From positions 3,275,096 through 3,339,095 of the forward strand of contig OZ240206.1 of assembly GCA_965197405.1 (NCBI GenBank): a stretch of 64,000 nucleotides of DNA. Reading direction: 5' to 3'. The stretch is from Dehalococcoidia bacterium. Its GTDB lineage: Bacteria; Chloroflexota; Dehalococcoidia; Lucifugimonadales; JAGWBF01. Made by a program: the position numbers and the translations under genes. The notes below the pieces were generated by a model that was not told where the DNA came from, did no database searches, and saw only the letters and a program-made list of their open reading frames with translations. Below, piece by piece: positions 1-33,944 of the stretch. The number at the start of each line of letters is the position of its first letter. Position 1 is the stretch's first letter.

Positions 1-339
1 CACTCTACCACCGGATGCGTCACAGTCCTGTAGGGGGGAATAGATAGCGACGATACGTCCCTATCTCCCCTCCATGCTGTCTGGGGGGTACAAAATGGCA
101 TCAGCGGGCCGATTGCCGGGGTCCGCCGACCCCCAAATCACTCCTGTTTGAGCTACGAAACGGGGGTGACGTGTCGCCTGACCGGTCAGGGACAATTATG
201 GGAAGCTGCGCTAAAATACAGGACGAGTCTGATGACAACTTGATTGCACTTTGGGAACCCTGACGTGTCAGCCGATAGGGAGGGAACTAGCTATGGCTGA
301 ACCTGTCCGGCGTGTCCGCAGAGCTGATCGGGGCAGGAT

Positions 340-575
340 TTGGCGTGTCGGCGGCATCCGCGGCCCAGTTTGGTCCATCAGTTTTGGCGCGAAACGATGT
401 GGGGGAGGGCGACGCGATTTTGGGTGGGCGGGCAGAAACGGACATCCTGGGCCAGCCAGCTAGGAATTTGCGCCACATTCGGAGGAAATTAACGGGAACG
501 AGTGAACACTTTGAGTAAGGGCTGGTTCCGGCGAAAAGTGGATGAAATTGCAAAAGCGGGCCACCCCTGTAGAGG
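340..575 (-). repeat. Inverted copy of the non-coding M module (upstream region of the regulator family). It forms the left arm of a long inverted repeat around 582..1500.
   Basis: The reverse complement matches 1590-1865. For example, 500-531 GAGTGAACACTTTGAGTAAGGGCTGGTTCCGG matches the reverse complement of 1661-1690 CCGGAACGCACCCTTTCTAAAAGTGTTCGC. Shadow ORFs 251..463(+) and 1595..2128(-) both translate to GPVW..RCGGG..GHPGP. The repeat is imperfect and its extent is approximate. Confidence 0.6.
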
Positions 576-581
576 ATGGAA

Positions 582-1046
582 ATGAGTGACGGACGGGCAT
601 CGAGGGCCGACGACGATAGGCCCGACCTCAAGTGGGTCGTGGAGTGGCTGGTCGAGCGGGAAGGACAGCGCAAGACGGCGGCCCTCCTGGGTGTGAACCG
701 AAAGACGGTGGCGCTGGCCCTGCGCCGGGAGCGGTTGACGGGCAATATGGCCCTTGCCGTCCGGCGGCTCATGGCCAACCTGGACGACCCGGAGTGGGAG
801 AGGACGCCGCCGCTGGACAGGTTGGAGGCGAGGATACAGGTGGCGCTCGAAGCGGCGCACGAACTGGCGGCGCTGGTGGAGAGTCTGACGCAGCGCGTGG
901 AGGCCCTGGAGGCGGCACGGGAGCCCGAGGACGACGCTATCAGCCAGGAGTCGGCGGATGCGCCCGACGCTGAGGGGCGGGGTCTGCGTCTGTTCAACTG
1001 GAGGCGGAGGCGTCAGTCGCAGGGCGAGGAAAAGAGCGATGGATGA
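582..1046 (+). CDS. Small HTH plus coiled-coil regulator-like protein, a short paralogue of 29417..30268 and 53756..54595
   Basis: HTH-like KTAALLGVNRKTVALALRR, then a heptad-rich helix (LEARIQVALEAAHELAALVESLTQRVEALEAA). The start was moved to the second ATG (582), behind GAGGA. The stop overlaps the next start (ATGGATGA). The upstream TTGCAAAAG box resembles TTTGCAGAGGGAG upstream of the paralogues. Confidence 0.6.
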   Translation: MSDGRASRADDDRPDLKWVVEWLVEREGQRKTAALLGVNRKTVALALRRERLTGNMALAVRRLMANLDDPEWERTPPLDRLEARIQVALEAAHELAALVESLTQRVEALEAAREPEDDAISQESADAPDAEGRGLRLFNWRRRRQSQGEEKSDG

Positions 1047-1500
1047 GCCCGTCCGCTGGGTGACGAAGGCGGAGGCCGCTGAGGAGCTGGAGGTCTCCCT
1101 CTCGACTCTGGACCGGAAGATCAGGCAGGGAGAGGTGGAGGTCCGCAGGGAGGGCCGCCGGGTGTTCGTGCGGATGGCGGGGGAGTACATCACCGACGAG
1201 GAGCTGCTGCGCCGGACGATCAACAGGGAGCATGAGCTTGAGGGGACCGTGCGGGAGTTGGAGCAGAGCGTATCCGAGTGGAAGCTGAGAGCGTCCGAGT
1301 TGGAGCGGGAGCGAGACGAGGCCAGGGAGGCCGCAGCCACTGCCAGAGGGCCGTATGTGAAGCTTGAGTTGGAGCACCAGAGGGAGGTCTCCGACCACGA
1401 GGTGACGACGTTAGCGCTCAACGTCTTCCGCGTGGCCGCCATTGTGCTGCTCGTGCTGCTGGTCGGCAGCGTCCTCCTGTGGTGGTTTGTGCTGAGGTAG
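1039..1500 (+). CDS. MerR/excisionase-type HTH protein with a coiled coil and a C-terminal membrane helix
   Basis: WVTKAEAAEELEVSLSTLDRKIRQGEVEV is a typical excisionase/MerR-like HTH. Central ELE/ERE heptads are present. The C-terminal VAAIVLLVLLVGSVLLWWFVL is hydrophobic. ATG 1039 overlaps the upstream stop. Confidence 0.6.
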   Translation: MDEPVRWVTKAEAAEELEVSLSTLDRKIRQGEVEVRREGRRVFVRMAGEYITDEELLRRTINREHELEGTVRELEQSVSEWKLRASELERERDEAREAAATARGPYVKLELEHQREVSDHEVTTLALNVFRVAAIVLLVLLVGSVLLWWFVLR

Positions 1501-1544
1501 GGGAAGCGCTGTCGGCCCGTCACCTCGGTCTCCGTCTCCGTCTT

Positions 1545-1865
1545 CAAGGGACGTAACGCACCCCCACTTCAATCGCCTTTTCGGGGGCCTAATGTCATTG
1601 GGACCCCGCTCCAACCGGACGGCTGATGTCATTCCCCACGTTTGGCGATGTCATTGCCGTCCGGAACGCACCCTTTCTAAAAGTGTTCGCTGGATTTGTC
1701 CGACATACCCCCGAAATCAGCCCGTTTGCATAGCTGAGTGGCCCCGGATGTCCGCTTCTCCCCCAGGTCCCATTTTCGTGTACTCCCCCTCCACATCGAC
1801 CGGCGGCCAACCGGATGGGCCAAACGGGGCCGCCGTCCCCACCGGTTCGGAGCCCCGGGAGACCG
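1545..1865 (+). repeat. M module, direct copy; right arm of the inverted repeat
   Basis: 1545-1700 aligns with 30352-30507 at high identity (GGGACGTnAnGCACCCCCACTTCAATCGC...AATGTCATTGGGA...GATGTCATTCCCCACGTTTGGCGATGTCATTGCCGTCCGGAACGCA...AAAGTGTTC). 1590-1865 is the reverse complement of 340-575. Confidence 0.75.
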
Positions 1866-3014
1866 GCATCGAGACCCCGATCCACCGCCAACAGACCCCG
1901 CCGCATGGTTGACGTGTCACCATGTCCCGGCCCCGGTGAGCGCTGCGTCAGCGCCCCTTCCGAGGGACTGGGAGCGCCGTTTCCGCCGCGTCCTGCACCC
2001 CCACGTCCATCCCCTTCCGCGCCCCGTTTTCCGTCGCACCCGCCCTTTTGCCGCCGCGTCATGCCCACCACCATCCAACGAGTTTCGTTGGATTTGGCCT
2101 GAACGCGCCCTTTCAACGAAGTGTTCACTTTTCTTCTCCTGTAGGGCGCGATTTACCCCTGCCCCAGCTATGAAATTGCCCCTGCGTCCACTTCGCCGTC
2201 AAACGCAATACCCTGTACAGCCCCTCCACATGGTCCGCACCCCTCCATGTCGGCGGAGCCTGGAAGGTGCATCACACGCGATGCACTTTATGAGGGACAT
2301 GCGCCACAGCCCGACCAGATGCAGATATCGCCCGGGCATACTCCGCAGGGGCAGGCCCTGGTTATCCCGACCCGGTGATCACCGGCGCCGCCGCCGGGAC
2401 CACCACCCCCACATCCTTTAGGGCTCCCATAGGGGAAGTGAACCCTCCCCCAAATCGCCTCTGCGGTCTCCCGGACTGCTCGCTCCCATTTAGCTCCGGG
2501 CCGGGCTGGGACGTGGTTTCATACCTGGCGACCGCCCCGACTTCCCTTTTGGGAACTGACGCCCAAATCGGGTGAACCAGCCCTTACCAGAAAGTGCTCG
2601 CAACAACGGCCCCGACTTCCCTATTTTCGTCCTGTTTCAGGTTCAAAACATCCCCCGATTTCCCTTTTGGGAACTGACGCCATTCCTTGTACACGGGTAT
2701 GACATCAGATCCGGCTCCTGAAGGGGAAATTGACGGCCACCCAACAGCCTGCGCAGCTACGGATGGCCCTGCGGAGGGTCGATTTGGCCCGACATGGCCG
2801 ATATGCGGCCGGTACCACCCGCTTGCCGACTTCCCTTTTGGGAACTGGACCCCCAATTTTGAGGAATCAGACCTTACGCGACGCTCCTCTGAAGACCCCG
2901 GCTCTCCCGCTCCAAACTGCTCGCTCCGGTTTAGCAGACTGCCCCGTTCACCCCGATTTCAGCTACGAAACCGCCCGAGCTGCAACTTCACGATTCACCC
3001 AATCTCCTGTACAC
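1683..3014 (+). repeat. Gene-free array of diverged ~100-nt units (GTGTTCRC / TCCTGTAGRGG / hairpin / CAGCTACGAAAC / CTCCTGTACAC)
   Basis: The best units are 2121-2220 and a half unit at 2960-3014, with degenerate units at 1683-1784 and 2470-2700. The same ordered motifs with the same ~100-nt span occur at 30490-30590, 31021-31120 and 54729-54829. ORFs on the track here are low-complexity P/R/G shadows. Confidence 0.65.
2535..2852 (+). repeat. Three and a half copies of a palindromic box, CCCGACTTCCCTTTTGGGAACTGAC
   Basis: Copies lie at 2535-2563, 2652-2681 and 2824-2852, with a half copy at 2610-2640. The core TTCCC-TTTT-GGGAA is a perfect 5-bp dyad. Confidence 0.7.
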
Positions 3015-3097
3015 GGGTGAGACCCCGCCATGTCCCCTGGAATCTCGCGCCCCAAGAGGGGGTTTGTCCGCGTGCTCTGCGCCAGCGCCGGAGACGC

Positions 3098-3146
3098 TTG
3101 ACAGGGGTGTCGGAAATGGCGCAATATCTTGGTAAGACTCGATAAC
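3098..3146 (+). promoter_or_regulatory. Candidate promoter plus GGTAAGACTCGATAAC box upstream of the RHH-PIN operon
   Basis: TTGACA (3098-3103), an 18-nt spacer, then CAATAT (3122-3127). The box at 3131-3146 recurs upstream of rec1 (5702-5717) and partly upstream of the second RHH gene (33687-33704). Confidence 0.35.
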
Positions 3147-3159
3147 AAGGGGTTTGAAC

Positions 3160-3417
3160 ATGCCGCGAACGACCAAGACCATTACTTTCTCGTTGCCGCC
3201 GGAGATGGCCGACAGGGTGGACGAGGTGATGAAGCAGCAGGGACGGTCCCGGAGCGAATTCCTCCGGGAGGCCGTGCTCCGCTACATCGAGGAGTGCGAG
3301 TGGAGACAACTGCTCCAGTACGGAGAGGCGAAGGCCAGGGAGAAGGGCATCGGTCCCGATGACGTGTCCCGGCTGGTGGAAGAGTACCGGGCTGAGGTTG
3401 GCTCGGTCCGTGCATGA
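3160..3417 (+). CDS. Ribbon-helix-helix (CopG/MetJ-type) antitoxin
   Basis: MPRTTKTITFSLPPEMADRVDEVMKQQGRSRSEFLREAVLRYI is a classic RHH beta-strand plus two helices. Its stop overlaps the PIN start (ATGA). The start is taken at ATG 3160 rather than TTG 3154. Confidence 0.8.
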   Translation: MPRTTKTITFSLPPEMADRVDEVMKQQGRSRSEFLREAVLRYIEECEWRQLLQYGEAKAREKGIGPDDVSRLVEEYRAEVGSVRA

Positions 3418-3821
3418 GAGTCGTCCTCGACACCAACGTCATAGTCTCCGGCCTGAACTTCCCCGGCAATGAGCGCCTGGTGCTCGAACTGGCTCTCAGG
3501 GGACGGTTCGAGCTTTATGTGTCCACCTTCATCCTGGAGGAAGCTGCCGGGGTGCTGGGGCGTAAGTTCGATTGGGACGCGGAACGCTCGTCCCAGGCTC
3601 TCAGCGCGCTTGGGAATGCCGCGACGGTCATCTACCCCCGTAGACTCCCGGAGGTGATCGAGGGGGGCCACGCCGACAACCGCATCCTGGAGTGTGCCGT
3701 GGAGGCTTCCGCCGATTACCTGGTCACCGGCGACCGGCGGCACCTGTTGCCGCTTGGGACACACGAGGGAGTGAGAATCCTCAACGCTCCCCGCTTCCTG
3801 TCGGCGCTGGGAGAAGGATGA
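3414..3821 (+). CDS. PIN-domain toxin (VapC-like ribonuclease)
   Basis: MRVVLDTNVIVSG (first acidic residue). It continues ...LEEA..., ...ADNRILECAVEASADYLVTGDRRHLL, the PIN acidic quartet pattern. It is 135 aa and coupled to the RHH gene. Confidence 0.8.
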   Translation: MRVVLDTNVIVSGLNFPGNERLVLELALRGRFELYVSTFILEEAAGVLGRKFDWDAERSSQALSALGNAATVIYPRRLPEVIEGGHADNRILECAVEASADYLVTGDRRHLLPLGTHEGVRILNAPRFLSALGEG

Positions 3822-5641: not shown

Positions 5642-5737
5642 TAGAGGCAGCGGCCGACAGCCGTTCCTTGACAATGGCCCCCTGGGTGAGTCATGATACT
5701 GAGTAAGACTCGGTAATTACAGGCAATGGAGGACAGC

Positions 5738-7390
5738 ATGAAGAAGCATCTACAGCCCCTAACGCCGGCGGCCCTCTACGCCAGGGTGTCCAGCGACCGG
5801 CAGGACGTGGACCTGTCCGTGTCCGCCCAGCTACGGGCGCTCAAGGAATACGCCAGGGCCAACGACTACTCCGTGGCCCGCGAGTACGTGGACGAGGCCG
5901 AGAGCGGCCGCGTCGCCGACAGGCCCCAGTTCAGGGAGATGATCGAGGAGGGCGGCAAGCCGAAGGCCCCCTTCGACGTGATCCTCGTATGGAAATTCAG
6001 CCGCTTCACCCGCAAGCGCGAGCACGCCGTAGCCTTCAAGTCCCAGCTGCGGCGCAAGGGCATCCGGGTGGTGTCCATCACCGAGCAGGCCGAGGACAAC
6101 GCCACCGGCAGGCTGCTTGAGGGAATCATCGAGAGCGTGGACGAATATTACAGCGAGAATTTGGCGCAGGAGGTCGTCCGGGGGATGAGGGAGGCCGCTT
6201 CCAGGGGCTTCTTCCTCGGCTCCAACGCCCCCTTCGGCTACAGGAAGATCAAGGTCAGCGACGGGGCGAAGGAGCGCCCCACCCTTGAGGTTGACCCGGC
6301 CACAGCCCCCGTGGTGCGGGAGCTATTCGAGAAGTCCCTGCGGGGCAGCGGCCTCAAGGAGCTATGCAAGGAGCTGAACGACCAGGGCATCACCAACAGG
6401 GGCAAGCGCTGGTACAAGGGAACGCTCCACTACGTGCTGCGAAACGAGGCGTACACCGGCACCGCCGTATGGGGCAAGAGCAGCAAGGGCCAGGAAGCCG
6501 CCGACCCTGTGCGTGTTGAGGGAGCGTGGCCCGCGCTGGTGTCGAGAGAGCTGTTCGAGGACGTGCAGCAGGCGATGAGCGAGCGCGCCCCGAAGGTGCA
6601 GAGGCCCGGTAGAGTTGGGAGCAAGTTCCTGCTGAGCGGGTTGCTCAAGTGCGGGGTGTGCGGCAGGCCCTACTCGGCCCAGGGAGCCAAGAGCGGCCAG
6701 TTCGCCTACTACATCTGCGGGACCCTGTTCAGGGAGGGAGCGGGGACGTGCAGCGCCCGCTACCTGAACGCCCCGAAGCTGGAGACGTTCGTGGTGGAGA
6801 AGATCAGGGAGCGTATCCTCAACGAGGAGACCATCGTGGCCCTCGTGACGCTGGTGGCCGAGGAGATCGACGCGATGGCCGGCGAGCTGTCCGGCAGGCT
6901 GAAGGTCGTCGAGGCGGAGCTATCCGACGTGAGGAAGCGTCTTGAGAAGCTCTACGAGGCCATTGAGACGAGCGAGTTGACCCTGGAGGTCCTGTCGCCC
7001 CGCATCATGTCTCTGAGGCACCGTGAGGAGCAGCTGGAGGCTGCGAGAGAGGACGCCGAGACCCAGATTGAGCAGAGGAGAGTGGAGCTGCCCAACACCG
7101 AGGAGGTAGCGCGGTACGTGGCTGACTTCCGGGACTTCCTGAAGGATGGGACGATCCCCGAGCGGAAGGCGCTCATCCGCAACTTCGTTGAGGGCATCAA
7201 GGTGACTGGTGACGAGGCTACGCTGACGTACACGGTCCCCATGCCGAGCGACGGAGCGATCTCGGAATCGGCCTCGGTTCTTGATTTCGTCAAGTCCAGC
7301 CCACCACCGCTTACGGTAGATACCGCCATCTTCGAGATGTCGCTCGGCAGCCTGTCGGCGCACCGAGGTCTGTCGATTCCTGTAGTGTGA
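5738..7390 (+). CDS. Large serine recombinase (rec1)
   Basis: The resolvase catalytic N-terminus reads AALYARVSSDRQDVDLSVSAQ. A recombinase domain follows, then a zinc ribbon (CGVCGRPY...YYICG...C) and a long coiled coil. The start is taken at ATG 5738, just after GGAGGA. It is paralogous to 33937..35619. Confidence 0.9.
   Translation: MKKHLQPLTPAALYARVSSDRQDVDLSVSAQLRALKEYARANDYSVAREYVDEAESGRVADRPQFREMIEEGGKPKAPFDVILVWKFSRFTRKREHAVAFKSQLRRKGIRVVSITEQAEDNATGRLLEGIIESVDEYYSENLAQEVVRGMREAASRGFFLGSNAPFGYRKIKVSDGAKERPTLEVDPATAPVVRELFEKSLRGSGLKELCKELNDQGITNRGKRWYKGTLHYVLRNEAYTGTAVWGKSSKGQEAADPVRVEGAWPALVSRELFEDVQQAMSERAPKVQRPGRVGSKFLLSGLLKCGVCGRPYSAQGAKSGQFAYYICGTLFREGAGTCSARYLNAPKLETFVVEKIRERILNEETIVALVTLVAEEIDAMAGELSGRLKVVEAELSDVRKRLEKLYEAIETSELTLEVLSPRIMSLRHREEQLEAAREDAETQIEQRRVELPNTEEVARYVADFRDFLKDGTIPERKALIRNFVEGIKVTGDEATLTYTVPMPSDGAISESASVLDFVKSSPPPLTVDTAIFEMSLGSLSAHRGLSIPVV
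7296..7330 (+). other. att-like core inside the rec1 3' end
   Basis: CCACCACCGCTTACGGTAGATACC aligns codon for codon with rec2 (CCACCAAACTTGACGGTAGACAGA) and rec3 (GGACTTCCGTTTACGGAAGATACC). Similarity between the three genes stops just downstream. Confidence 0.45.
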
Positions 7391-7432
7391 TGCGTGGGGG
7401 TGGAGGAACGCAAGGTTAGAGAGGGCCTACGC

Positions 7433-9808
7433 CTACGCCCCCTCCCCCTTCTCCATCCGGTAGCCGACGCGAGGCTCAGTGAGAATGTATGTGGGGTTGT
7501 TGGCGTCGTCGCCCAGCTTGCGGCGGAGCTGCTTGGCGGCGGTGCGCACCCGCCGCGAGTCGCCCGACCTCCGCAGGCCCCAGACCCGTCGCAGCAGCCG
7601 GTCGTAGGTCAACACGCGACCGGCGTTGACCGAAAGCTCGAAGAGCAGTCCGTACTCGATGGCGGTCAGCCGCACGGGACGCCCGGCCAGTGTCACGCGA
7701 CGCTCGGCGTAGTCGACGGCCAGCTCCCCCAGCACGAAGGGTTCCGACGGCTCGGCCCATTCGGGCGCTTCCCGCTTGCGCAGGGCCGCCTTGATCCTGG
7801 CCACAAGCTCCATCGGCGAGAAGGGCTTGACCACGTAATCGTCGGCCCCATTCGCGAAGGCCCTGGCGATGGTCTCTTCCTGGCCGTAGGCTGACAGGAA
7901 GATAACCGGAACGTCGGCCATGTCGAGGATGCCCCGCATCAGCTCGATGCCGTCGGTCCCCGGCAGCATCAGGTCCAGCAGCACCAGGTGGGGGTCGTTC
8001 GCCTCCACCAGGCTGAGCGCCTCCTCCGGGTCTCCGGTCAGGACCGGGGCGTAGCCCGCATTCGTGAGCGCGTCCCGGACGTGCCTGAGCGTCTGCGGGT
8101 CGTCGTCCACCGCGAGGATGCGTTCCCGTTCCCTCTCCGACCGCCCGGAGCGCACCGGGAGATTGGCGGCCCCGATACCGGCGTCCTGGGCCACCGGAAT
8201 GGTGAAGGTGAACCGCGCCCCCAGGCCCGGCCCGTCGCTCTCGGCCCATATCCGGCCCCCGTGGGCCTCCACTATCCCCTTGCAGATGGCGAGGCCCAGG
8301 CCGGACCCCGCGATGTCCCGTCCCCGGTCCTCGCCGTCGATGCGGGAGAACTTCCGAAACAGGTGCGGCAGCCGCTCGGCGGCGATCCCTCTGCCCTCGT
8401 CCGTGACCGAGACGGCCACGTGGTAGCCCTCCCGCACGGCGGACACCCCTATGGCCGACGCCTCGTGGGAGTGCCGGGCCGCGTTGGAGAGCAGGTTGTT
8501 CAGCACCTGGATGATGCGCCTCCCATCCGCCATGACCAGTGGCAACTCCGGCGAGAGGTCGATGCGGAGGTTGTTCCTGCCCCCTCCGCTCTGGAACCTG
8601 CTCCTGGCCTCGTCCACCAGGCTCGCCACCTCCGCCGGCGCGGGGGCGACCGGCAGCTCGCCCGTCTCGATGCGCGCCACGTCCAGCAGGTCGCCGATCA
8701 GGTCGCGCATGTAGTCGGCCTGCTCGCCGATGATGCGGAAGAACTGGAGCATCTCGGCGGGGTCCAGGTCGGACGCCGCCTCCGTCAGCGTGGCGGCGGA
8801 GCCCTTGATGGCGGCCAGCGGCGTCCTCAACTCGTGGCTCACCATGCCCAGGAACTCGGCCCGCAGCCGCTCCAGCTCCTCCAGCGGCGTCATGTCCTGT
8901 AGGGTGACGACCACTGAAACGACCTCGCCCCCCTCCGAGCGGATGGGCGTGGCGTTGACCAGGGTGGTGACGCTCCCCCCGTCGGGGACCTCGATGACGA
9001 TCTCCTCGGCGCGCACCGTCTCGCCCGTGCTCAGCGCCTGGGCCAGAGGGAACTCCTCCAGGGAGACCTCCCGGCCGTCGGCCCGCCGGAAGGTCAGCAT
9101 GTCGAGGAGCTGCTCCGCAGAGCCATCGGGCATGTGCAGGCCGCTGACGATCCTCCTGGCCTCCCGGTTGACCGACGTCACGCCGCCCGTCTTCGCGTCG
9201 AACACCAGGACGCCCACCGGCGAGGTGTCGATCAGAGTCTCCATGTCGGCCCTGGCCCGCTGCTCGTCGCGGTGCCTGCGGGCGTTGGCGATGACCAGCG
9301 CCGCCTGGGAGGCGAACATCACCAGGGTCTCCTCGTCTTCGGGGGTGAACTCCAGATCCTTCTCGCCCACGTAGAAGGCCCCGACGCTCTCCCCAAGGTG
9401 GCGGATGGGCGCGGCAAGAAAGGGCAGCGGGGAGCTCACCGCCATCGGCGGGCGGAACTCGGGCAGGCCCAACTCCCTGACGTAGCTGTGGAAGTCCCGC
9501 AGCCGCAGCGGTTCACTGATGCTGCTCAGGTACTCGAAGAACAGCATCCCGTTGGGAAATTCGGCGAACCGCCGGCTCTCCTCGGGAGTCAGCCCGGAAT
9601 AGAGGAAGTCCTGTACCTGTCCCGATTCGTTTAGGAGGGTGATGACGCCGTAGCGCGCCCCGGTCAGGGAGCAGGCTGAGTCCAGCACCCCCTGGAGCAC
9701 CGTGTCGAAGTCGAGGCTCTCGTTGATGCGCAGGCTGGCCTGGCTGAGGCGGGCCAGCCGGTCCCGCAGCTCCGCTATCTCCCGCTGAGGCTCGTCTGCC
9801 TGTTCCAT
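7433..9808 (-). CDS. Hybrid sensor histidine kinase fused to a complete OmpR-type response regulator (GAF-PAS-HisKA-HATPase-REC-wHTH)
   Basis: H-box SHELRTPLAAI. N/G boxes NLLSNAARHS, DEGRGI and GSGLGLAI. The receiver reads ILAVDDDPQ...LVLLDLMLPG...VVKPF. The winged helix reads LTAIEYGLLFEL...LRRKLGDD...ILTEPRVGYRM. The start is taken at ATG 9808, behind GAGGGGGGAA. Confidence 0.85.
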   Translation of the reverse strand: MEQADEPQREIAELRDRLARLSQASLRINESLDFDTVLQGVLDSACSLTGARYGVITLLNESGQVQDFLYSGLTPEESRRFAEFPNGMLFFEYLSSISEPLRLRDFHSYVRELGLPEFRPPMAVSSPLPFLAAPIRHLGESVGAFYVGEKDLEFTPEDEETLVMFASQAALVIANARRHRDEQRARADMETLIDTSPVGVLVFDAKTGGVTSVNREARRIVSGLHMPDGSAEQLLDMLTFRRADGREVSLEEFPLAQALSTGETVRAEEIVIEVPDGGSVTTLVNATPIRSEGGEVVSVVVTLQDMTPLEELERLRAEFLGMVSHELRTPLAAIKGSAATLTEAASDLDPAEMLQFFRIIGEQADYMRDLIGDLLDVARIETGELPVAPAPAEVASLVDEARSRFQSGGGRNNLRIDLSPELPLVMADGRRIIQVLNNLLSNAARHSHEASAIGVSAVREGYHVAVSVTDEGRGIAAERLPHLFRKFSRIDGEDRGRDIAGSGLGLAICKGIVEAHGGRIWAESDGPGLGARFTFTIPVAQDAGIGAANLPVRSGRSERERERILAVDDDPQTLRHVRDALTNAGYAPVLTGDPEEALSLVEANDPHLVLLDLMLPGTDGIELMRGILDMADVPVIFLSAYGQEETIARAFANGADDYVVKPFSPMELVARIKAALRKREAPEWAEPSEPFVLGELAVDYAERRVTLAGRPVRLTAIEYGLLFELSVNAGRVLTYDRLLRRVWGLRRSGDSRRVRTAAKQLRRKLGDDANNPTYILTEPRVGYRMEKGEGA

Positions 9809-10121
9809 TTCCCCCCTCGAACCGGGCTGCCGACGGCCATGAGCCGCCGCCGCGCCGGATGCGGGATTCGGGACGCGAACCGCCCGGCCAGCCCCAATTA
9901 TAGCTGGCCCGGGCAAAACTCACAACAGATTCGGTTGGAAAAGTCTTGACTCTCACAGATACCTCACAGACATTTTGGTAAAATGCGGTGCATGGCTGCC
10001 CATTTTTCGGGAGATATTCACTTGGCACTCGACAGGCCGATAGACGGAGTGGAGAAAGTGGCCGCACCGGCCGCGTTCGAGACTGCCTTCCGTTGCCTAA
10101 CTAGCACAGACGTTCACCCCC

Positions 10122-10584: not shown

Positions 10585-13500
10585 ATGACTCGCACCGATA
10601 GACGACGATTCCCCGTCCTGCTGGCCGTCATAGCGGCCCTGGCCCTGGCGATGGCCATGCCCTTCTCCATGGTCCATGCCCAGTCGGTCTCGGAGGGCGT
10701 CGACGACTGTCCCCGCAACACCACCACCACTTGCGAGGTGGAGGTGGGCGGCTCCGTCATGGGCACGATCGGCAACGACCTCGACACCGACTGGTTCAGG
10801 GTAGAGTTGAAGGCGGGCCGGACCTACCGGATCGACATGAAGGGCGCGATTCTCGTCGCCCCCGACACCCTCCTGGACCGCGAGCTCACCCTGCGCCTCC
10901 CGCAGATCAACACGATCCGTGGGAGGAATGGCGGTCAGCTTGTCAACACGTTTGGCCGCGACGAATCAAGCGCCCACCACCTGTTCCGTGTGACGTTTCA
11001 CGCCCATGCCGATGGCGCCCATTACATCGCGGCGAGCGGCGAGTCGTTCGAGAAGGGCGGCTACAAGCTGCGCGTCATCGACATCACGCGGGACGACGAC
11101 GCCACGCCGGTCGCCGTGACTGTCCAGTTCGGCGCGGCCAGCTACACCGCCACCGAGGGCGGGACCGCCGCCACGGTCACCGTCAATCTGAGCGCCGACC
11201 CGGAGCGTTCCGTGACAATCCCCGTCACCGCCGCAGGCGCAAACGGGGCCGGGAGCGGCGACTACACCCTGTCGGAGACGTCGGTGACCATCGACAGCGG
11301 CGAAACCTCGGCCACCTTCATCGTCACCGCCACCGACGACAGCGTGGACGACGACGGCGAGAGCGTGAACCTGAGCTTCGGCACTCTGCCCGACGCGGTG
11401 AGCCGCGGGGCGCTGGCCACCGCGTCGGTGAGCCTGGTCGACGACGACGGCGCCGACACCACCGCCCCGACGGTGGACTCGGCGACTGTGTCCCAGGACG
11501 GCACCAGCATCGACGTCGTCTTCGACGAGGACCTGGACGCCACCGGCTCGGAGCCCGCGGCGTCGGCGTTCGGGGTCACCGTCGACGGAGGCACTGCGGT
11601 CAACCCGGCGAGCGTGGCGATCAGTGACGACACGGTCACCCTGACCATGGCCTCCGCCGACGCCATCGCGGCGGGCGCGGCGGTCACCGTCGCCTACGAC
11701 AAGCCGACTTCCAACGCCCTGGCCGACGCCGCGAGCAACGAGGTCGAGTCGTTCACCGGCACGGACGCGATTGCCGCGTCCAACCGTCCGGCTGCTCCGG
11801 GCAAGCCGCAGAATGTTCAGCTCGTCTTTGAGGAGACGACGAGCGGCTATGACGCGAAGCTCTCGTGGGATGCGCCCGACGATCTCGGCGGCGGCACATT
11901 CCAAAGTTACAACTGGTTCCTGACCAAATCGGTAGGCGATGGCAACCTAGTCATCGAGTCGGACGACAGTCAGCAGACTGCGCCTGCGGCTGACTCGCCG
12001 ATCAGGGAGAGCCTGCCCTCGCCGGAGATTGGCGATGTCTACAAACTAACTGTCACGGTGTGGAACGAGGCCGCCTCCGCCTCCGCTGCGCGCAGTGCAA
12101 TCTTCGTGCACGGCGAAACGGGGGTGCCCGAGGTCACGCAGGCTGCAATTAGAAGTGACGGGCTGCTGCTTGCCTGGAGTGCGCCCGAGATCGCTTCAAG
12201 CCTGGATGTCACCGGCTACCAGGCCCGCTACAAGCTGACCGGCGCGGCCGACGTCGACGACAGCTGGACGACGGTTGCGGCCGGCGCCACCAGCCCGTAC
12301 ACAATCACGGGCCTCGCGGACAGCGCCGGCTACAACGTGCGGATGCGGGCGGTCATTGAATGGAACAGCGGCGACTATTACGGCGACTGGTCGGAAGCGA
12401 AGCGTGCGGACAACCCCTCGATCGTCGCCGGCGGGGTGGAAGTGAGCTCAGACCCGGATAGCGACAACACCTACGGACGAGGCGAGACCATCGAGTTCAC
12501 GGTCGAATTCAACGAGGCGGTGACAGTCACCGGCGAGCCGGAGTTCGAGTTCTGCCTTGGGGCTGTTGACGCTTCCTGTACGGAGGGCACGGACCCGCCA
12601 GCGCGGCGGCGGGCCGCGCACAGCTCCGGCGACGGCACTGACAAGCTGGTGTTCAGCTATGTCGTGGGCCTGAGATTCACCGACCTCGACACGGACGGCA
12701 TCCGGATCGGCGACAGCGCCATCAGGCTCGGCGACGACGAAAAGATCGTCAGCGCCGACACTGAAACTGCGGCCTATCTCAGCCATGCGGCGCTCGGCAT
12801 CCAGACGGGCCACAGGGTGGACGACTCCAACGTGGCTGACACGACGGCGCCGTCGGTGTCGTCGGCGAAGGTGTCGGAGGACGGTATGACCATCCTTATC
12901 GTCTTCGACCAGGCGCTGGACAGCAGCTCGACAGTGGAGACCGGGGAGTTCGCGGTGACGGTGGGCGCGGCGTTGCCGAGGAAACCGTTGGGCGCGGCGC
13001 TGAGCGGCGCCGATACGGTGACACTGACCATCCACGACCCCCTCAACGTCACCCCGACCACGGCGATTGCGGCGGGCGAGACGGTGAGTGTGGCGTACAC
13101 CGCGCCGGCCACGGGCGGCCTGCAGGACAACAGCAGCAACAAGGCAGCGGGGTTCACCGAGAACGTGATCAACCGGCCCGCCAAGCCCACCGGGTTGACG
13201 CTGACCGACGGCCACGAAAAGCTGACAGCGTCGTGGACGGCGCCCACTGCGACAGGCGGCAGCGCCATCACCCGCTACGACGTGGAGTGGAAGACCGCCG
13301 CCCAGACCTGGGCCGAGGCCGCCACCGCCGGGCAGTCCGCAACCGCCGCGGCCGATGCCACCACCCATGAGATCACCGGCCTGACCAACGACACCGAGTA
13401 CACGGTGCGGGTGCGGGCGGTGAACGGCGCGGGGAACGGCCCGTGGAGCACGGAGGAGTCGGAAACGCCGGCAGTTCCCGCCAACAAGAATGCCGACCTT

Positions 13501-16500
13501 GCCGACCTGAGCATTGAGGGCGTCACCGTGGAGGGCTTTGACAAGGACACCCTCTCCTACGAGGTCGTGGTCGTCCTCCCGGCCCGCTCAGGCGTCAACT
13601 TTGTCACCATCGAGACTACGACGGTGAACGACCAGGCCACGGTCGGTTACCTCCCCGTCGCCACCGACGCCAGCGTCGCCAGCCCCGGCTACCAGGTGAC
13701 CGTGCTCCTTAGGACGCCGACCACGTACAGGATCACGGTCACCTCGGCGGACGGGAGCGTGACCAAGGAGTACGCGATCGAGATCACGCGCTACACGCTG
13801 CCCGGCGCGCCGCGCAGGCTGGACGCGAGGGCCAGCCACCGGCAGGTCGAGCTCTCCTGGAACGATCCGGACAACAGCGACATCGAGAGCTACCAGTACC
13901 GGGTGAGCGGCGACGGCGGCAACACCTGGGACCCGGACTGGACCGAGATCAACGGCAGCGGCGCCTCGACCACCGGCCTTACGCTGACCGACCTGGACCA
14001 CCGCACGGAGTACAAGTTTGAGGTGCGGGCGGTGGTTCAGGGAGCCGCGGGCGCGGCTGCGTCGGTCACCGCCACGCCGGACGACGACTTTCCCAACGAC
14101 ACCACCACCACCGGGGAGTTGGACGTGGGCGGCTCGGTCACGGGCAACATCGAATTCGGAGATGACGTGGACTGGTTCAAGGTCGTGCTGGAGGCGGGCA
14201 CGCGATACCAAATCGACCTTGAGGGCGCGGATACCGGCCGCGGCACCCTGGTAGACCCGGCTATAGAATTCCTCGCCGATTCGATGGGCGACGGGATTGC
14301 AGATACAGAAGACTCCGATAATGGCGTGGGCAAGAACGCCCGGGCTATCTACACGCCAACCGCGGCCGGCGCCTACTACGTGAGTGTATCGTCTGAGACC
14401 TCAGCGCCGGGCACCTACACGGTGTCGGTGATCGTGCTGGGCGCGAACGGCGCCTCGGAGGCCGACACGGACTTTCCCGACACGACCTCCACCACCGGCC
14501 GGGTCGAGGTCGGGGCCTCGGCCACGGGCAACATCCACACCGGTGGCAACAGGGACGCGTTCCGCGTCGACCTGAACGCAGGCAAGGTCTACCAGGTCGA
14601 CCTGGAGGGAGCGGGGACCAACAGGGGCAGCCTGGATGACCCGCAACTGTTCGCGATCGCCGATTCGACTGGTTCTTCGATATCCGGGGGGGACAACAAT
14701 GACATCAGCAGCAGCAACCTCAACAGCCGGGTGACCTTCACGCCGACCGACGCCGGCAGCTACTACGTGTTGGTCAGGGGCAACGGCACGAGCACCGGCA
14801 CCTACACGCTGTCGGTGCGCGACGTCACGCCGCCCGACGCTCCGGGCGGCCTGGACGCGCAGGCCAGCTACCGGCAGGTCGACCTCTCCTGGAACGATCC
14901 GGACAACAGCGACATCGACAGCTACCAGTACCGGGTGAGCGACGACGGCGGCAACACCTGGGACCCGGACTGGACCGAGATCGACGGCAGCGACGCCTCG
15001 ACCACCGGCCTTACGCTGACCGACCTGGACCACCGCACGGCGTACAGGTTTGAGGTGCGGGTGATGGTTCAGGGAGCCGCGGGCGCGGCTGCGTCGGTCG
15101 CCGCCACGCCGGCGGCGACCACCGTGCCCCACGACTGGGACCTGCGGCCGCCGGGCGTGGCCACGGGGAAGACTTTCCGCCTGCTGATCGTCACCTCCGA
15201 CAGGCGCAACGGTCAATCGGGGGATGTCGACGATTACAACGACCACGTGCAGGATGCAGCGGCTTCGGGCCATTCGGACATCCAAGACTACAGTTCGGAG
15301 TTCCGGGCGCTGGTCGGGACCAAGGGCGGCGCCTCGCCCAGGGACAACACCCACTCGAATAAGAACAGCGACGGGCGGGGCGAGCAGATCTGGTGGCTGA
15401 ACGGCCCCAGGGCCGCCAACGACTACGACGATTTCTACGACGGCTCCTGGGACCACACCAACCCGGTGAGGCTCGAATCGGGCAACTCCCGTACCTTCTA
15501 CGACGTGGACGACAATGACGAGCAATTTTATAAGCGGATAATCTGGACGGGCGCCACGGCCGAGGGGGCTCGCTCCGGCAGCAGGCACCTGGGAAGCGAC
15601 GACGGTGAAGGCTATGTCGGCGTTCCCTACTTCGAGAACGGCCCGTTGCGACTTGGTGGCCGGTGGGTAACAACCAACAGATCCCTCCGTTTGTACGGTC
15701 TCTCTCCGGTCTTCCTCGTCGAGGCGCCGGACGCTCCCTACGCGACGACGGCCGCCATCACGACGGACCCGGCCAACGGGACCGACTACCGGACCGGCGA
15801 GGTGGTCAAGGCCACTGTGACCTTCAGCGAGGACGTGACGGTGACGGGGACGCCGCAGTTGCCGCTGCAAATCGGCGGCGATGAGCGCGACGCTGACTAC
15901 GCGGCCGGCGACAGCAGCTCCACCGTGCTGTCGTTCTCATACGTTGTCACCGACGATGACACCGACCGGAACGGCATCTCCATCGACGCCTTCGCCCTGA
16001 AGCTCAACGGAGGCACCATCAAGCGCACGGACACCGACGTGGACGCGGCGCTGACCCATACACGCGTCCTCGACGACGATGACCACAAGGTGAACCTGCC
16101 GCCGCTCATCACCGGCGTCGAGGTGACGTCCACCCCGCAGGCGGCCAACGACACCTACGGGCTGGGGGAGGACATCGAGATCACCGTCACCTTCAGCGAG
16201 GCGGTGAACGTCACCGGAGACGTCGAGTTCGGGATCAGCGCCGGCGGGCCGAAGCAGGCGCGGCTCAAGAGCGGCAGCGGCACCACCGAACTGGTGTTCG
16301 CCTACAAGGTGCAGGCCGCCGACGAGGACGACGACGGCATCTGGATCGGCAACCACAACACCGACCACCCGACCTTCGACCTCCAGGCCGGCCAGTCCGT
16401 CGTCGGCGTCGACTCGGGACGCCCCGCCTTGCTGGAGCACAGCGTGGAAGGCACCCAGGGCGGCCACAAGGTGGACGGCGACAATACAGCAGCCGACGCC

Positions 16501-19500
16501 ACCCTGTCGGCGCTGTCGCTGAGCGGGATCACTTTGGACCAGACGTTCACCGCGGGCGCTGCGGGCACGGCGGTCACCAGCTTCACCGCCACGACGGATG
16601 CCGCCCCCACCACGGTGACGGCCATTCTGACGGCCACGCCCACCCAGAGCGGCGCCAGCGTGGCGATCACTCCCGCCGACGCCGACATCAACACCACCGA
16701 CCACGAGGTGGACCTGGACGTCGGCGACACTGTCATCACCATCGCGGTGACCTCCAGCAACGGCGACGTAGTGCGCACATACACCATCACCGTCACCCGC
16801 CCGGCGGGGATCGGGGTGCCTCACGACTGGGACCTGAGGCCGCCGGGCATCGCCACGGGGAAGACGTTCCGCCTGCTGATCGTCACCTCCGACAGGCGCA
16901 ACGGTGAATCGGGGGATGTCGACGATTACAACGATCACGTGCAGGATGCGGTGGCTTCGGGCCATTCGGCCATCCAAGACTACAGCTCGGGTTTCCGGGC
17001 GCTGGTCGGGACCAAGGGCGGCGCCTCGCCCAGGGACAACACCCACTCAAATAAGGATAGCGACGGGCGGGGCGAGCAGATCTGGTGGCTGAAGGGCCCC
17101 AAGGCCGCCGACAACTACGTCGATTTCTACGACGGCGACTGGGACCACACCAACCCGGTGAGGCTCGAATCGGGCAACTCCCGTACCTTCTACGACGTGG
17201 ACGCCAATGAACAACAATTTAATCGCCGGATAATCTGGACGGGCTCCCGGTACGACGGGGTTCGCTCCGGTAGCAGGCACCTGGGAAGCGACGGCGGGCA
17301 AGCCTATGTCGGCGTTCCCTACTTCGAGAACGGCCCGTTGCGATATGGTAGCCGGCGCGTAGATACCTACAGATCCCTCAGTTTGTACGGTCTCTCTCCG
17401 GTCTTCCTCGTAGAGGCGCCGGACGCTCCCTACGCGACAACGGCCGCCATCACAACGGACCCGGCCAACGGGACCGACTACCGGACCGGCGAGGTGGTCA
17501 AGGCCACCGTGACCTTCAGCGAGGATGTGACGGTGATGGGGACGCCGCAGTTGCCGCTGCAAATCGGCGGCGAGGAGCGCGACGCTGACTACGCGGCCGG
17601 CGACAGCAGTTCCACCGTGCTGTCGTTCTCATACACAGTCACCGACGACGACACCGACCGGGACGGCATCTCCATCGACGCCTTCGCCCTGAAGCTCAAC
17701 GGAGGCAGCATCAAGCGCGAGGACACCAACGTGGACGCCGCGCTGACCCATACGCGCGTCCTCGACGACGATGACCAGCTCGTCAACCTGCGCCCCCTTA
17801 TCACGGACATTGAGGTGACCTCCACCCCCCAGGCGACCAACGCCAACGACACCTACGGGCTGGGGGAGGACATCGAGATCACCGTCACCTTCAGCGAGGC
17901 GGTGAACGTCACCGGAGACGTCGACTTCGGCCTCTCCGTCGGCGGGGCGAAGCGGGCGCGGCTGGCGCGCGGCAACGGCACCACCGAGCTGGTGTTCGCC
18001 TACACGGTGCAGTCCGGCGACGACGACGACAACGGCATTTTCATTGGCAACCAGGACTCTACCAACGCCACACTAGCCCTCCAGGACAGCCAGACCATCG
18101 TCGGCGCCGTCTCGGGCCTCCGCGCCGATCTCGACCACGATGAGGAGGGAAGAAAGGACGACCACAAGGTGGACGGCAGCCTGACCGCAGCCGACGCCAC
18201 CCTGTCGGCGCTGTCGCTGAGCGACATCACCCTGGTCCCGGCGTTCGCCCCCGGCGCCACGGCATACACCGCCACGACGAGACTCTCCTCCACCACGGTT
18301 ACCATCGCCATCTCCCAGGGTCAGAACGGGGCCACCGGTAGAATCACCGCCCCCGCCGACGCCGACCTCAACGCAAGCGGCCACCAGGTCAACCTCGCAG
18401 AAGACGCCGACACCGTCATCACCATCACGGTGACCTCTTCCAACGGCGACTCGATGCGCACCTACACCGTCACGGTCACCCGCCAGCCGGCGATCGAAGA
18501 CGACGCCACCCTGTCGGTGCTGGCGCTGAGCGGCGGAATCACCCTGGCCCCGGCGTTCGACCCACGCACCACGGCCTACGCCGCCACGACCACGGCCACC
18601 ACCACCACGGTGACGGCCACCGCCAGCCAGAGCGGCGCCAATATGGACATCGATCCCGACGACGCCGACACCAACACGACGGACCACGATGTGAACCTCG
18701 CAGAAGGCGACACCGTCATCACCGTCACGGTGATCTCCAGCAACGGCGACTCGACCCGCACCTACACCGTCACGGTCACCCGCGAGGCCGCAAACGGGAA
18801 CAGGTCCGCCCCGCCGCCGCCCAAAAACGTGCGGGCGGTCGAGGAGAAGGGCGGGGTCAGGCTGACCTGGCAGCCCCCCGACGGCCCCGCGGTCACCGGA
18901 TACCGCATCGAGCGCCGCCCCGCCGACGGGCAGGGCAGCGGTCCCCAGCGTTCCCACGGGCAGCCCAGGGACCACCACACCCTGGTGGAGGACACCGGCA
19001 GCGCCGATACCGGCTATACCGATGAGAGCGCGGAACAGGGCGTCGGGTACGAGTACCGGGTGACCGCCCGCAACGAGTCCGGCCCGGGCGAGGGCTCGGA
19101 CTGGGTGAGGTCCGGGCCGGAGCCGGCATCCAACGCTCCGGCCACCGGCGCGCCGACCATCAGAGGCACGGCGCAGGTGGGAAAGACATTGACGGCGGAC
19201 ATCACCGGCATCTCCGACGCCGACGGTCTGAGCGGCGAGACGTTCAGCTACCAGTGGGTATCCGGTGACGGAACAACCGATACGGATATCGAGGGTGCGA
19301 CCGGCTCGACCTATACCCTCGCAGCAGCCGACCAGGGCAGGTCGGTCAAGGTCAGGGTGACCTTCACCGACGACGGCGGCAACGAGGAGACCCTGACCAG
19401 CGCGCCCACGGGTCCGGTGCTGGGCGACGGCCCGCCGGGAGCGCCCCGCAACCTCACCGCCACCCCGGGAAACCAGGAGGTCACCCTTTCCTGGGACCCG

Positions 19501-27040: not shown

Positions 27041-28153
27041 CTAGGCGGCTGCCATCTCCGGCTGCTTCAGCATGGCGAAGTAGCCGGGCATCAGGACGGG
27101 CGTCATCGACAACCGGCCCATGCCGTCGTACCCGGCGCGGTAGGCGTACTCCGCCTTCGCGCCCCAGGGTACCCGGCCGCCGACCCGGACGGCGGGGCCG
27201 CCGAGCCTGCCGCGGCGCCCCGGCCCACCGGCGCCGTGCACCACCATCCCGCTCCGCTCGCCCTTCCGCCAGCCCAGCACTTTCACCTCGGCGGGCATGA
27301 CCCGCTCCTCCGACTTCGCGCGCCGGAACAGCACGGCGTGCAGCCTCTTCAGCACGCCCGCCGACGGTGTGGACTTGCCGTTCATGATCTGGGAGAGGTA
27401 CGAGGAGCTGATGCCCGCTCGCCGTGCGACCTCGTTCTGGCTGAACCCGTGAGCGTCCATGCGGTCCCACACGGCCTTCGTGTCGACGCAGGCAGGCTGC
27501 GCTGACGCGACCGTCGCCTCGGCCTCCAGCGCCGCCTCGACCAGCGCCTGGACCCTCACGCCCATGCCCCTGCGGCCGCGGGACACCTCCGACATGTAGC
27601 TGGCGGACACCCCGACCCGCTCGGCCAGCTCCCGCATGGTCATGCCCAGGGCGCGGGCGCGCTCCCGGACGTAGCTGCTCTGCCCGCTCACCACGCTCGC
27701 CGGGCGGTTGGCGCACTGCGCGGGCGCGATCTTCGCCGGGGCCTTGAGCGCCGACTCGATCCGGGTCTGGACCTTGACGCCCATGTGCTTGCGGCCACGG
27801 GCCACCTCCGACATGTATCCGTAGGACACCCCGGCGCGGTCGGCCAGGTCCCGCATGGTCATTCCCATCTCGCGGGCGCGCTCCCGGATGAAGCTGCTCT
27901 CGCCGGTCACGACGCCGCCCTGGCGGTAGACGGTCCCCTGGCCGGGGACCTCTCCCAGGACCGCAGCGACCTTCTGGCGCATCTTGGGAGTCCACGGCCT
28001 GCCCCCGTTCGCAAACTGCGACAGGTATCCCGCACTCACGCCCATCAGGGCCGCGAGCTCCTTCATGGTGACCCCCCACCGCCTCGCAGCAGCCCTCAGC
28101 TCGGTCTCCGCCGTCCTCGTCGTCGTTCCGGTTGCCATCGTTGCCGTCGTCAT
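27041..28153 (-). CDS. Protein with four tandem XRE-type helix-turn-helix domains
   Basis: The four HTH units are MKELAALMGVSAGYLSQFANG, MRDLADRAGVSYGYMSEVARG, MRELAERVGVSASYMSEVSRG and SQNEVARRAGISSSYLSQIMNG. Each is followed by a K/R-rich helix. The gene is paralogous to 49418..50539. AGGAGG lies 8 nt upstream. Confidence 0.85.
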   Translation of the reverse strand: MTTATMATGTTTRTAETELRAAARRWGVTMKELAALMGVSAGYLSQFANGGRPWTPKMRQKVAAVLGEVPGQGTVYRQGGVVTGESSFIRERAREMGMTMRDLADRAGVSYGYMSEVARGRKHMGVKVQTRIESALKAPAKIAPAQCANRPASVVSGQSSYVRERARALGMTMRELAERVGVSASYMSEVSRGRRGMGVRVQALVEAALEAEATVASAQPACVDTKAVWDRMDAHGFSQNEVARRAGISSSYLSQIMNGKSTPSAGVLKRLHAVLFRRAKSEERVMPAEVKVLGWRKGERSGMVVHGAGGPGRRGRLGGPAVRVGGRVPWGAKAEYAYRAGYDGMGRLSMTPVLMPGYFAMLKQPEMAAA

Positions 28154-28196
28154 CGGTCCGTCCTCCTTCTGTTGTGTTGTGTTGCCTCTGGCCTGC

Positions 28197-28247
28197 GCCC
28201 GCTTGCGGGCAAAGAAGAAGGGCCGTCCCCGGATGGGAACGGCCCTT
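28197..28247 (-). terminator. Two hairpins followed (on the minus strand) by CTTCTTCTTTG, in the 5' leader of the 4xHTH gene
   Basis: On the minus strand, AAGGGCCGT..ACGGCCCTT is followed by CTTCTTTG, then GCCCGCAAGCGGGC, about 45-95 nt upstream of the ATG. The same arrangement occurs at 51507-51558, and a single hairpin lies at 50565-50597. Confidence 0.45.
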
Positions 28248-28539: not shown

Positions 28540-28563
28540 TGATTCGTTGGGGAATCGACTCCG

Positions 28564-32158: not shown

Positions 32159-32161
32159 CCC

Positions 32162-33704: not shown

Positions 33705-33722
33705 ATCAAGAGACAAAAAAAC

Positions 33723-33944
33723 ATGCCGAAGAAACGAAGGACCGTCACCTTCTCTCTGCCGCCGGAGATGGACGACCAGCTCAGGCAGGCGGTCAGGGAG
33801 GACGGCCGCACGCTGAGCGAGCTTCTGCGCGAGGCGTTCCGCCTCTACCTGGAGGAGAGGGAGTGGCGCAGACAGGAGAGGACGCAGATGCGGCGCTCGC
33901 GCCGAACCAGCAGGAAGCAACAAGGAGGAGCAACAGATGAGTGA
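33723..33944 (+). CDS. Ribbon-helix-helix protein coupled to the recombinase gene
   Basis: MPKKRRTVTFSLPPEMDDQLRQAVREDGRTLSELLREAFRLYL parallels the antitoxin at 3160..3417. Its stop overlaps the rec2 start (ATGAGTGA). No toxin gene follows. Confidence 0.75.
   Translation: MPKKRRTVTFSLPPEMDDQLRQAVREDGRTLSELLREAFRLYLEEREWRRQERTQMRRSRRTSRKQQGGATDE

Follow-up and report, generated by a model that had tools for sequence, protein, structure and literature searches.

Contig OZ240206.1 of a Dehalococcoidia bacterium (assembly GCA_965197405.1) was analysed over 64,000 nucleotides (positions 3,275,096 to 3,339,095; hereafter the window). Near its left end, two copies of a non-coding module, M, face in opposite directions around a pair of genes encoding R1, a regulator paralogue, and a protein with an excisionase-like fold (the Xis-like protein). 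An initial annotation had read this arrangement as a DNA-inversion switch driven by the serine recombinase of the surrounding element. Comparison with related copies of the element points elsewhere: the locus is quite probably an ordinary modular mosaic of regulatory DNA, in which an apparent inverted repeat arose through two separate events and no inversion takes place. The locus forms the DNA-processing and regulation junction in the right-hand part of an integrative conjugative element (ICE) that is common in the high-GC metagenome-assembled genomes (MAGs) of Dehalococcoidia, often in several copies per genome. Table 1 presents an overview of the features discussed below.

Orientation of the segment among related elements

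By gapped local alignment, the two arms of the repeat comprise window positions 360-531 and 1661-1833, about 172 bp each, with several gaps and 126 of 180 aligned columns identical (70%). The reverse complement of 340-575 aligned locally to 1545-1865 scores 75, while 500 dinucleotide shuffles score 19.3 +/- 2.5 with a maximum of 31. Since the joined arms score far above the shuffles, the repeat is real at a length of about 172 bp. Within it, blastn reports 72% identity over 103 bp in inverted orientation (360-462 against 1833-1731) and an inverted repeat search 81% over 31 nt (501-531 against 1661-1691); the longest exact inverted match is the 9 nt AAAGTGTTC. The left copy is without the proximal part of M, that is, the three ATGTCATT repeats at 1592-1655, and 1548-1660 of the right copy has no inverted partner on the left side. 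The inverted homology described in the initial annotation is therefore beyond chance, but it is shorter than the proposed ~235-320 bp and weaker. Two oppositely oriented M copies do enclose R1 and the Xis-like gene, as had been stated, and both genes are real: R1 is 100% identical to a 154-residue database protein, P0121, and 1039..1500 encodes an HTH_17-like protein.

Related elements were collected by a scan of one genome per species, which gave 80 loci, and by exact look-ups, which added eleven; one locus (L001) is the same place as another (L003). Together with the window, 92 places were compared, and counts of orientation and modules rest mostly on 87 places or 86 loci. All 80 scan loci lie in Dehalococcoidia MAGs except one labelled Acidobacteriota (L023). 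Each locus was oriented on the Xis-like gene before the strands of its neighbours were scored. Of 87 places, 79 have the Replic_Relax (PF13814) gene upstream on the same strand, and in the other 8 it is undetected, owing to contig ends or divergence; a recombinase of >70% identity is downstream on the same strand in 67 and out of reach in 20. Five further R1-bearing places have the same gene order and strands, and the order is shared by ten additional R1 places in all. Wherever they were detected in the 92 places, neither Replic_Relax nor the integrase lay on the strand opposite R1 and the Xis-like gene. Comparison with syntenic elements, suggested at the outset as a check on the proposed switch, thus turned up no flipped copy among the 91 relatives.

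Both arms occur together in three places only, namely the window, L004 (104 nt at 69%) and L091 (collinear with window 1-2301 at 93%), and all three have one orientation. Among the 26 places with R1, a long inverted repeat is found in 3 and a match of only 32-39 nt at one conserved box of M, the A-box, in 8; the remainder have nothing detectable. The arms are also gained and lost independently of one another. The module forming the right arm, designated E-type, is present in 8 of 87 places, 6 of them without R1, and its occurrence against that of R1 gives a two-by-two table of 2/19/6/60 (odds ratio 1.05, p = 1).

Origins of the two arms

The left arm is part of an optional cassette. R1 is found in 26 of the 92 places, and in the R1-less elements (L002 and 65 other places) Replic_Relax is followed straight by the Xis-like gene. 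In L002, homology passes from window position ~285 directly to the Xis-like gene at 1037. An alignment of window 200-330, L002 5912-6040 and window 990-1080 reveals that 293-320 duplicates, in diverged form, the Xis-like 5' end, reading ATGGCTGAACCTGTCCGGCGTGTCC... where the original has ATGGATGAGCCCGTCCGCTGGGTGAC. On account of this duplicate, ~293-1038, comprising R1 and the inverted module (M'), is taken to be a cassette that entered where the Xis-like gene starts.

M' itself is a discrete unit of 221 bp. In one element (L092), R1 is kept and exactly 323-543 is gone, with a junction microhomology of only 2-3 nt, so M' is dispensable for keeping R1. In the other 25 of the 26 R1 places, M' and its GGAAC element are retained, even where R1 is down to ~77-83% identity. 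The minus-strand GGAAC of M', GGGCTGGTTCC, shows no variation across 21 R1 loci. Three loci (L070, L076 and L077) have GTGACCGGTCAC, a dyad of the TGAC-N2-GTCA type, in place of the A-box of M'. Across 86 loci, the full motif G[GC]AAC-N12-14-AAGTGTTC[AG]C occurs 51 times on the strand of the Xis-like gene, always before co-directional genes, and 16 times on the other strand. Since each of these 16 is the copy that precedes R1 by ~80 bp, the inverted copy reads as a fixed, non-flipping part of the R1 cassette. It mirrors the back-to-back regulator/M units at two further regulator genes of the window, R2 and R3, to which R1 is indeed opposite in direction, as the initial annotation had noted.

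Turning to the right arm, the Xis-like gene is followed in this family by an array of one to three tandem M modules. The proximal part of the first module, 1548-1701, is 88% identical to 30355-30508 in direct orientation. Homology to the window breaks off at 1687-1701 in L001/L003, L002, L087-L090 and L092, to begin again at ~2098. From the A-box at 1681 to that at 2119 the distance is 438 bp, which is one unit of the array and what unequal exchange between tandem M copies would be expected to add or remove. The E-type variant also follows the Xis-like gene in L004, L005, L006, L008, L014, L025, L036 and L091, six of which are without R1. It is true that the direct copy in the window has no gene to serve on its left, but this is no peculiarity, as at least 47 of 87 places have an M after the Xis-like gene. 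Nor is M obligatory there: in four R1-bearing elements (L083-L086), similarity stops at 1503 and a gene for a UvrD-like helicase of 915-950 amino acids follows ~105 bp after the Xis-like stop, without any M.

These observations suggest a history of two independent events. In one, the optional cassette (~293-1038), carrying R1 and a back-to-back M' in the same divergent arrangement as at R2 and R3, would have been inserted exactly at the start of the Xis-like gene, leaving R1 co-directional and translationally coupled with it. The other concerns the first module after the Xis-like gene, which is here of the same subtype, E/F, as M'; tandem M copies would gain or lose this E-type unit by exchanging unequally at the A-box. 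The fallback of the initial annotation, in so far as it names a fossil of recombination between element copies, comes closer to the truth than its switch, the arrangement being read here as the outcome of cassette insertion and unequal exchange.

A switch still in operation is extremely unlikely. Under that proposal, a site-specific recombinase of the element or its host would flip 532-1660 within the arms and so change which genes the M promoters serve. In the serine-invertase switches Hin/hix, Gin/gix, Cin and Pin, the enzyme has ~190 amino acids, is encoded within the segment or next to it, and recombines short sites that are nearly identical. The resemblance lies in the opposed homologous arms around two genes for DNA-binding proteins and in a serine recombinase encoded 4.2 kb downstream. 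That enzyme, however, is of the integrase type, 554 amino acids long and located at the element end, and it is kept in the 66 places that have no left arm; a small serine recombinase of ~180-200 amino acids with a C-terminal helix-turn-helix (HTH) is found neither in nor next to the segment, the 554-residue enzyme being the element's only one. Instead of short and nearly identical crossover sites there are gapped arms of 172 bp with an exact core of at most 9 nt. The repeats and the segment they enclose do not behave as one conserved unit, given the independent assortment of the arms and the survival of R1 without a left arm in L092, and none of the 92 places shows a flipped arrangement, including the three with both arms. 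A flip would, moreover, place the Xis-like gene on the opposite strand, whereas it everywhere runs in one direction with its neighbours. The related idea that the R1/Xis-like segment once lay the other way and was flipped between two M copies, leaving diverged arms behind, would explain why R1 is opposite to R2 and R3 relative to the genomic strand of their M modules. This too is highly improbable, since the Xis-like gene runs in the same direction at the 66 places where R1 and the left arm were never present, and a duplicated 5' end, as found at the cassette's left edge, is the mark of insertion, not of inversion. Because the back-to-back regulator/M unit is intact at all three loci of the window, R1 with M' is better described as an ordinary unit inserted in one orientation.

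A different proposal involves no rearrangement and depends on the spacer before R1. An alignment of 21 R1-bearing spacers shows the dyad CTGACCGGTCAG (178-189) to be invariant and CTGACGTGTCAG (260-271) nearly so, and 293-500 is conserved though non-coding. Since the region containing the dyads and TAAAAT is directly before the Xis-like start codon in R1-less elements, it is likely the promoter of that gene, termed here P_xis. R1-bearing elements would place M' in the path of transcripts from P_xis toward R1 and the Xis-like gene, and an interaction between the two convergent promoters is possible. Leftward transcription from M' against rightward transcription from P_xis, ~280 bp away, could then set the expression of both genes by interference or antisense RNA. 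The prgQ/prgX region of pCF10 has convergent promoters that act by transcriptional interference or antisense RNA. The retention of M' and its GGAAC in all but one R1 place, the conserved spacer, and the position of P_xis with its flanking dyads upstream, from where it must read through M' to R1, are all consistent with such a mechanism. Against it, L092 keeps R1 without M', the A-box has been exchanged for a different dyad in three loci, and M' could equally be read rightward as the promoter of R1 itself because GAAC-N17-GTTC is symmetric. Convergent transcription is accordingly judged unlikely, although not negligibly so; it is compatible with the mosaic explanation and no alternative to it.

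Several points weigh against the mosaic explanation as it stands. The strong conservation of M' in R1 elements implies a function that the two-event account leaves unspecified. Both arms are present in only three places, which makes for a thin population test of orientation in this configuration, and an assembly, which gives a single consensus orientation, would not reveal a minor sub-population in the flipped state. As for M, its promoter function is one that we infer from sequence. No gene for an extracytoplasmic function (ECF) sigma factor (Sigma70_r2/r4) or anti-sigma factor was seen among the element genes scanned and listed; a host sigma factor may be involved, and both GAAC-N17-GTTC and AGTGTTCACT are also dyads that could serve as dimer operators instead of a -35/-10 pair. 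A bolder combination can be put together from the same sequence features. M would supply portable, ICE-specific promoter/operators used by an ECF-type sigma or an element factor, M' and P_xis would form a convergent toggle on R1 and the Xis-like gene and hence on excision or transfer, and the Xis-like protein, with its winged HTH, coiled coil and anchor, would tether element DNA to the membrane rather than act as a classical excisionase. We regard this combination as distinctly unlikely, and a rare inversion in a sub-population hidden from the assemblies as less likely still.

The M module and the enclosed proteins

The initial annotation described M as a recurrent non-coding control module before plus-strand operons, and it was right to do so. 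The copy at ~54.7 kb is a looser relative (70% identity to 31018-31133). Alignment of 73 unique copies from the loci and the window yields a module of 130-180 bp that points toward the genes it precedes. The 5' half of the consensus consists of optional ATGTCATT repeats, CCGGAAC, 12-13 nt, AAAGTGTTCACT and ~9 nt; the 3' half continues with TCCTGTAG followed by a G-run/C-run, TTCAGCTACGAA, ~35 nt and CTGTACA(C/G)CCC. In the E/F type, to which both arms belong, GGAAC and the A-box are kept and the downstream boxes differ (TAGCTGnnTGGCCCnGGATGTCCG, CCACATCG and GATGGGCCAAACnGGGCC). GGAAC-N17/18-GTTC, counted with spacers of 16-18 nt, occurs eight times in the window where 2.1 are expected, and four of the eight are within M copies. 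A similar pattern, GGAAC-N-GTTC, also picked up palindromic GGAAC...GTTCC...GGTTC stretches at 21310-21337 and 21607-21634; they are 297 bp apart inside the 3' end of a 3691-codon open reading frame (ORF; 10585..21660) and are probably a repeated protein domain.

From copy to copy, the conserved boxes of M change reading frame, which shows them to be non-coding. Candidate conserved ORFs at 293-460 and inside the canonical module were likewise rejected, given frame-shifting indels among loci and boxes in different frames. An RNA-level role, with the arms encoding a structured small RNA or a cis-acting leader in both orientations, would fit the E/F leader, which has the conserved and mutually complementary boxes TGGCCCAGGATGTCC and GATGGGCCAAACNGGGCC and an RNAalifold consensus of -13.7 kcal/mol. 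None of its 16 predicted pairs shows a compensatory change, though; the canonical M is nearly foldless (-1.1 kcal/mol), and Rfam gives no match in the window, which leaves an RNA function very unlikely. With neither coding nor RNA structure supported, M is best read as a promoter/operator module acting at the level of DNA through proteins presumed to recognise it.

The promoter consensus of actinobacterial sigma-H/sigma-E factors, for example in Corynebacterium, is GGAAC-N17-18-cGTT (PMC10012870). Like promoters of ECF (group 4) sigma factors, nearly every M copy carries GGAAC, 17-18 nt and GTT(C), corresponding in spacing to a -35 and a -10 element and oriented toward the downstream genes. 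Unlike the ECF consensus, the base before GTT in M is T and not C, and the -10 side lies within the 10-bp dyad AGTGTTCACT. A sigma-70 reading of the distal part of M (TTGCAA-17-TACACC) was dropped, as it fits only some subfamilies.

R1 belongs to a family with 558 database homologues and is a helical protein with a probable HTH and a coiled coil that would serve as an optional accessory regulator. Its designation as a regulator paralogue can be accepted, although the homology is weak: against the N-terminal part of R2/R3, R1 shows 26% identity (pairwise E = 0.003), and hhalign gives a probability of 47% (E = 2e-4). Its structure model, with a mean predicted local distance difference test (pLDDT) score of 56, is too poor for a structure search. 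A peptide-pattern scan of JGI metagenome contigs and IMG/VR did not find R1.

The Xis-like gene is in every element of the family examined, and its product has 1608 database relatives, the best 120 of which are 73-94% identical and 149-154 amino acids in length. Its matches to Pfam HTH_17 (23 bits against a cutoff of 27) and to TIGR01764 'excise' (19.7 against 28.8) are both sub-threshold; many close homologues carry a precomputed PF12728 match, and phrog_66 is matched at E = 9e-5. The structure model (pLDDT 84.8) consists of a winged HTH at residues 5-47 and a single helix at 53-152, which ends in an invariant hydrophobic tail, LLxLLVGSVLLWWFVLR, predicted to be a membrane anchor. Because the long helix dominates the model, Foldseek gives no match to the whole at E <= 0.001. 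The N-terminal ~45 residues alone match Pukovnik Xis (4j2n), RdfS (8dgl), BldC (6ama) and RacA (5i44) with probabilities of 0.57-0.99, all at E > 0.09; the superpositions on these folds reach probabilities of 0.89-0.99 and TM-scores of 0.46-0.66 normalised to the target. A small, soluble excisionase consisting of a winged HTH only is therefore not what is encoded here; the protein has 153 residues with a helix of ~100 residues and a hydrophobic tail. By its model, the protein shares a fold with excisionases and no more; in length, coiled coil and anchor it departs from the classical type. In layout, its winged HTH and coiled coil place it nearer to RacA, a DNA-tethering protein, than to an excisionase of 60-80 amino acids, and unlike the known MerR-like excisionases, its recombinase partner would be a serine and not a tyrosine enzyme.

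The surrounding element family

Table 1. Features of the window, with positions counted from its first nucleotide
Feature	Position	Strand	Remarks
Replic_Relax (PF13814), 3' end	1..47	+	TAG at 45-47; rest of gene beyond window edge
Putative P_xis promoter/operator region	166..271	+	Dyads and sigma-70-like site
TGAC-N2-GTCA-type dyads	166-177, 178-189, 260-271; 1910-1919		Three around P_xis; fourth in E-type leader
Sigma-70-like site, GGGACA-17-TAAAAT	189-217	+	Only such site in 1-3200
Diverged duplicate of Xis-like 5' end	293..322	+	Left edge of R1 cassette
M' (F-type module)	323..543	-	Holds left arm 360-531
GGAAC-N17-GTTC of M'	504-529	-	A-box AAGTGTTCAC at 502-511
R1	582..1046	+	154 aa; stop overlaps Xis-like start
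Xis-like protein	1039..1500	+	153 aa; N-terminal winged HTH (MerR/excisionase type), long helix, C-terminal anchor (predicted)
First M after Xis-like gene, proximal part	1548..1701	+	ATGTCATT at 1592, 1626, 1648; GGAAC-N17-GTTC 1663-1688; A-box 1681-1690
Right arm, E-type M variant	1661..1833	+	
Segment missing in most relatives	1693..2097	+	One repeat unit between A-boxes at 1681 and 2119
Second, canonical M module	2098..2230	+	A-box 2119, CCTGTAG 2138, AGCTATGAAA 2166, CTGTACAGCCC 2213
RHH antitoxin/PIN toxin pair (cargo)	3154..3821	+	Pfam RHH_1 9e-11, PIN_3 1e-17
Large serine recombinase (integrase)	5726..7390	+	Resolvase, Recombinase and Zn_ribbon_recom domains
Four-fold XRE-HTH gene	27041..28153	-	First further element piece (27041-35619)
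R2	29417..30268	-	First further piece; two M modules and PBECR2/HTH_17 toxin-antitoxin pair next
Second large serine recombinase	33937..35619		End of first further piece
Four-fold HTH gene	49418..50539	-	Paralogous to 27041..28153; second further piece (49418-64000)
R3	53756..54595	-	Second further piece; IS630 before, M after
TrbL-like gene	55331..		After R3 and M, second further piece
VirB4/TraC-like gene	59071..		After R3 and M, second further piece

The backbone of the family runs from the Replic_Relax gene through the optional R1, the Xis-like gene, and M modules with variable cargo to a large serine recombinase. Between the Xis-like gene and the recombinase there are 0.1-6 kb of non-coding modules and cargo, the latter including toxin-antitoxin pairs, UvrD-like helicases and pentapeptide/FRG proteins. 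At the left edge, window 1-285 aligns to L002 5713-5994, where the Replic_Relax gene ends at 5759. The recombinase matches phrog_95 'integrase' at 5e-116 as well as a CcrB-like NCBIfam model. With 14 other element copies, similarity ends at window 7304-7399, in most cases at ~7305, which lies within the 3' end of the recombinase gene. The enzyme, like an integrase, thus sits at the boundary of the element. Since similarity ends ~85 bp before the stop codon, the attachment junction is probably within the 3' end of the recombinase gene. No tRNA that could mark an attachment site was found in the window, and PLSDB plasmids gave no DNA match.

Three further observations concern the flanks and the cargo region. 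A gene for a hybrid histidine kinase/response regulator (7433..9916, minus strand) recurs as a fragment of 83% identity on the opposite, left-hand side of the element in L001 (1-225), so the copies may share a neighbour or target, or elements may lie in tandem. In many loci, among them L002, L026, L027, L029, L034, L036, L054, L061 and L073, a second, convergent gene for a large serine recombinase of 40-57% identity comes directly after the first, an arrangement that suggests abutting elements or an end structure with two recombinases. Upstream of the RHH/PIN pair, a 29-nt motif, CCCCGAyTTCCCTTTTGGGAACTGACGCC, with a TTCCC/GGGAA hairpin core is present in three direct copies at 2535-2563, 2653-2681 and 2824-2852 (83-97% identical). 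As 2609-2975 is 87% identical to L001 7758-8125, it represents a further conserved non-coding block of the family.

Taken together, the element segments of the window look like an ICE family. The first further piece has no Replic_Relax or Xis-like gene, and the window looks like a hotspot with several partial or tandem elements. Candidate conjugation functions are Replic_Relax, directly upstream in the relatives, and the TrbL-like and VirB4/TraC-like genes in the paralogous segment of the window; the left part of the copy that holds the inverted arms lies beyond the window edge. Among the 15 best-ranked of 128 literature matches, no paper pairs Dehalococcoidia with 'integrative and conjugative'.

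An inversion switch, had it been true, would have meant a new kind of phase variation in an uncultured phylum. Since the comparative evidence argues against it, the finding itself is an ordinary one. What it leaves of use is a widespread, multi-copy ICE family in high-GC Dehalococcoidia with a clear backbone and with operons that share one control module, where cassette insertion and unequal exchange can account for how the family varies. Should M be confirmed as a promoter, the candidate ECF-type -35/-10 elements would help to annotate cargo operons in Dehalococcoidia MAGs.

Large serine recombinases are known as the integrases of conjugative and mobilisable elements, examples being TndX of Tn5397 and CcrAB of SCCmec. 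The present family resembles these in having an enzyme with Resolvase, Recombinase and Zn-ribbon domains at the element end, a relaxase-like gene and small HTH accessory genes upstream, candidate genes for a type IV secretion system (in the paralogous segment), and variable cargo between the regulators and the integrase. It differs from them in its host, an uncultured high-GC Dehalococcoidia lineage, in a relaxase candidate of the Replic_Relax type and in an Xis-like protein predicted to be membrane-anchored. A further difference is that its operons are headed by a shared and shuffled module of 130-180 bp.

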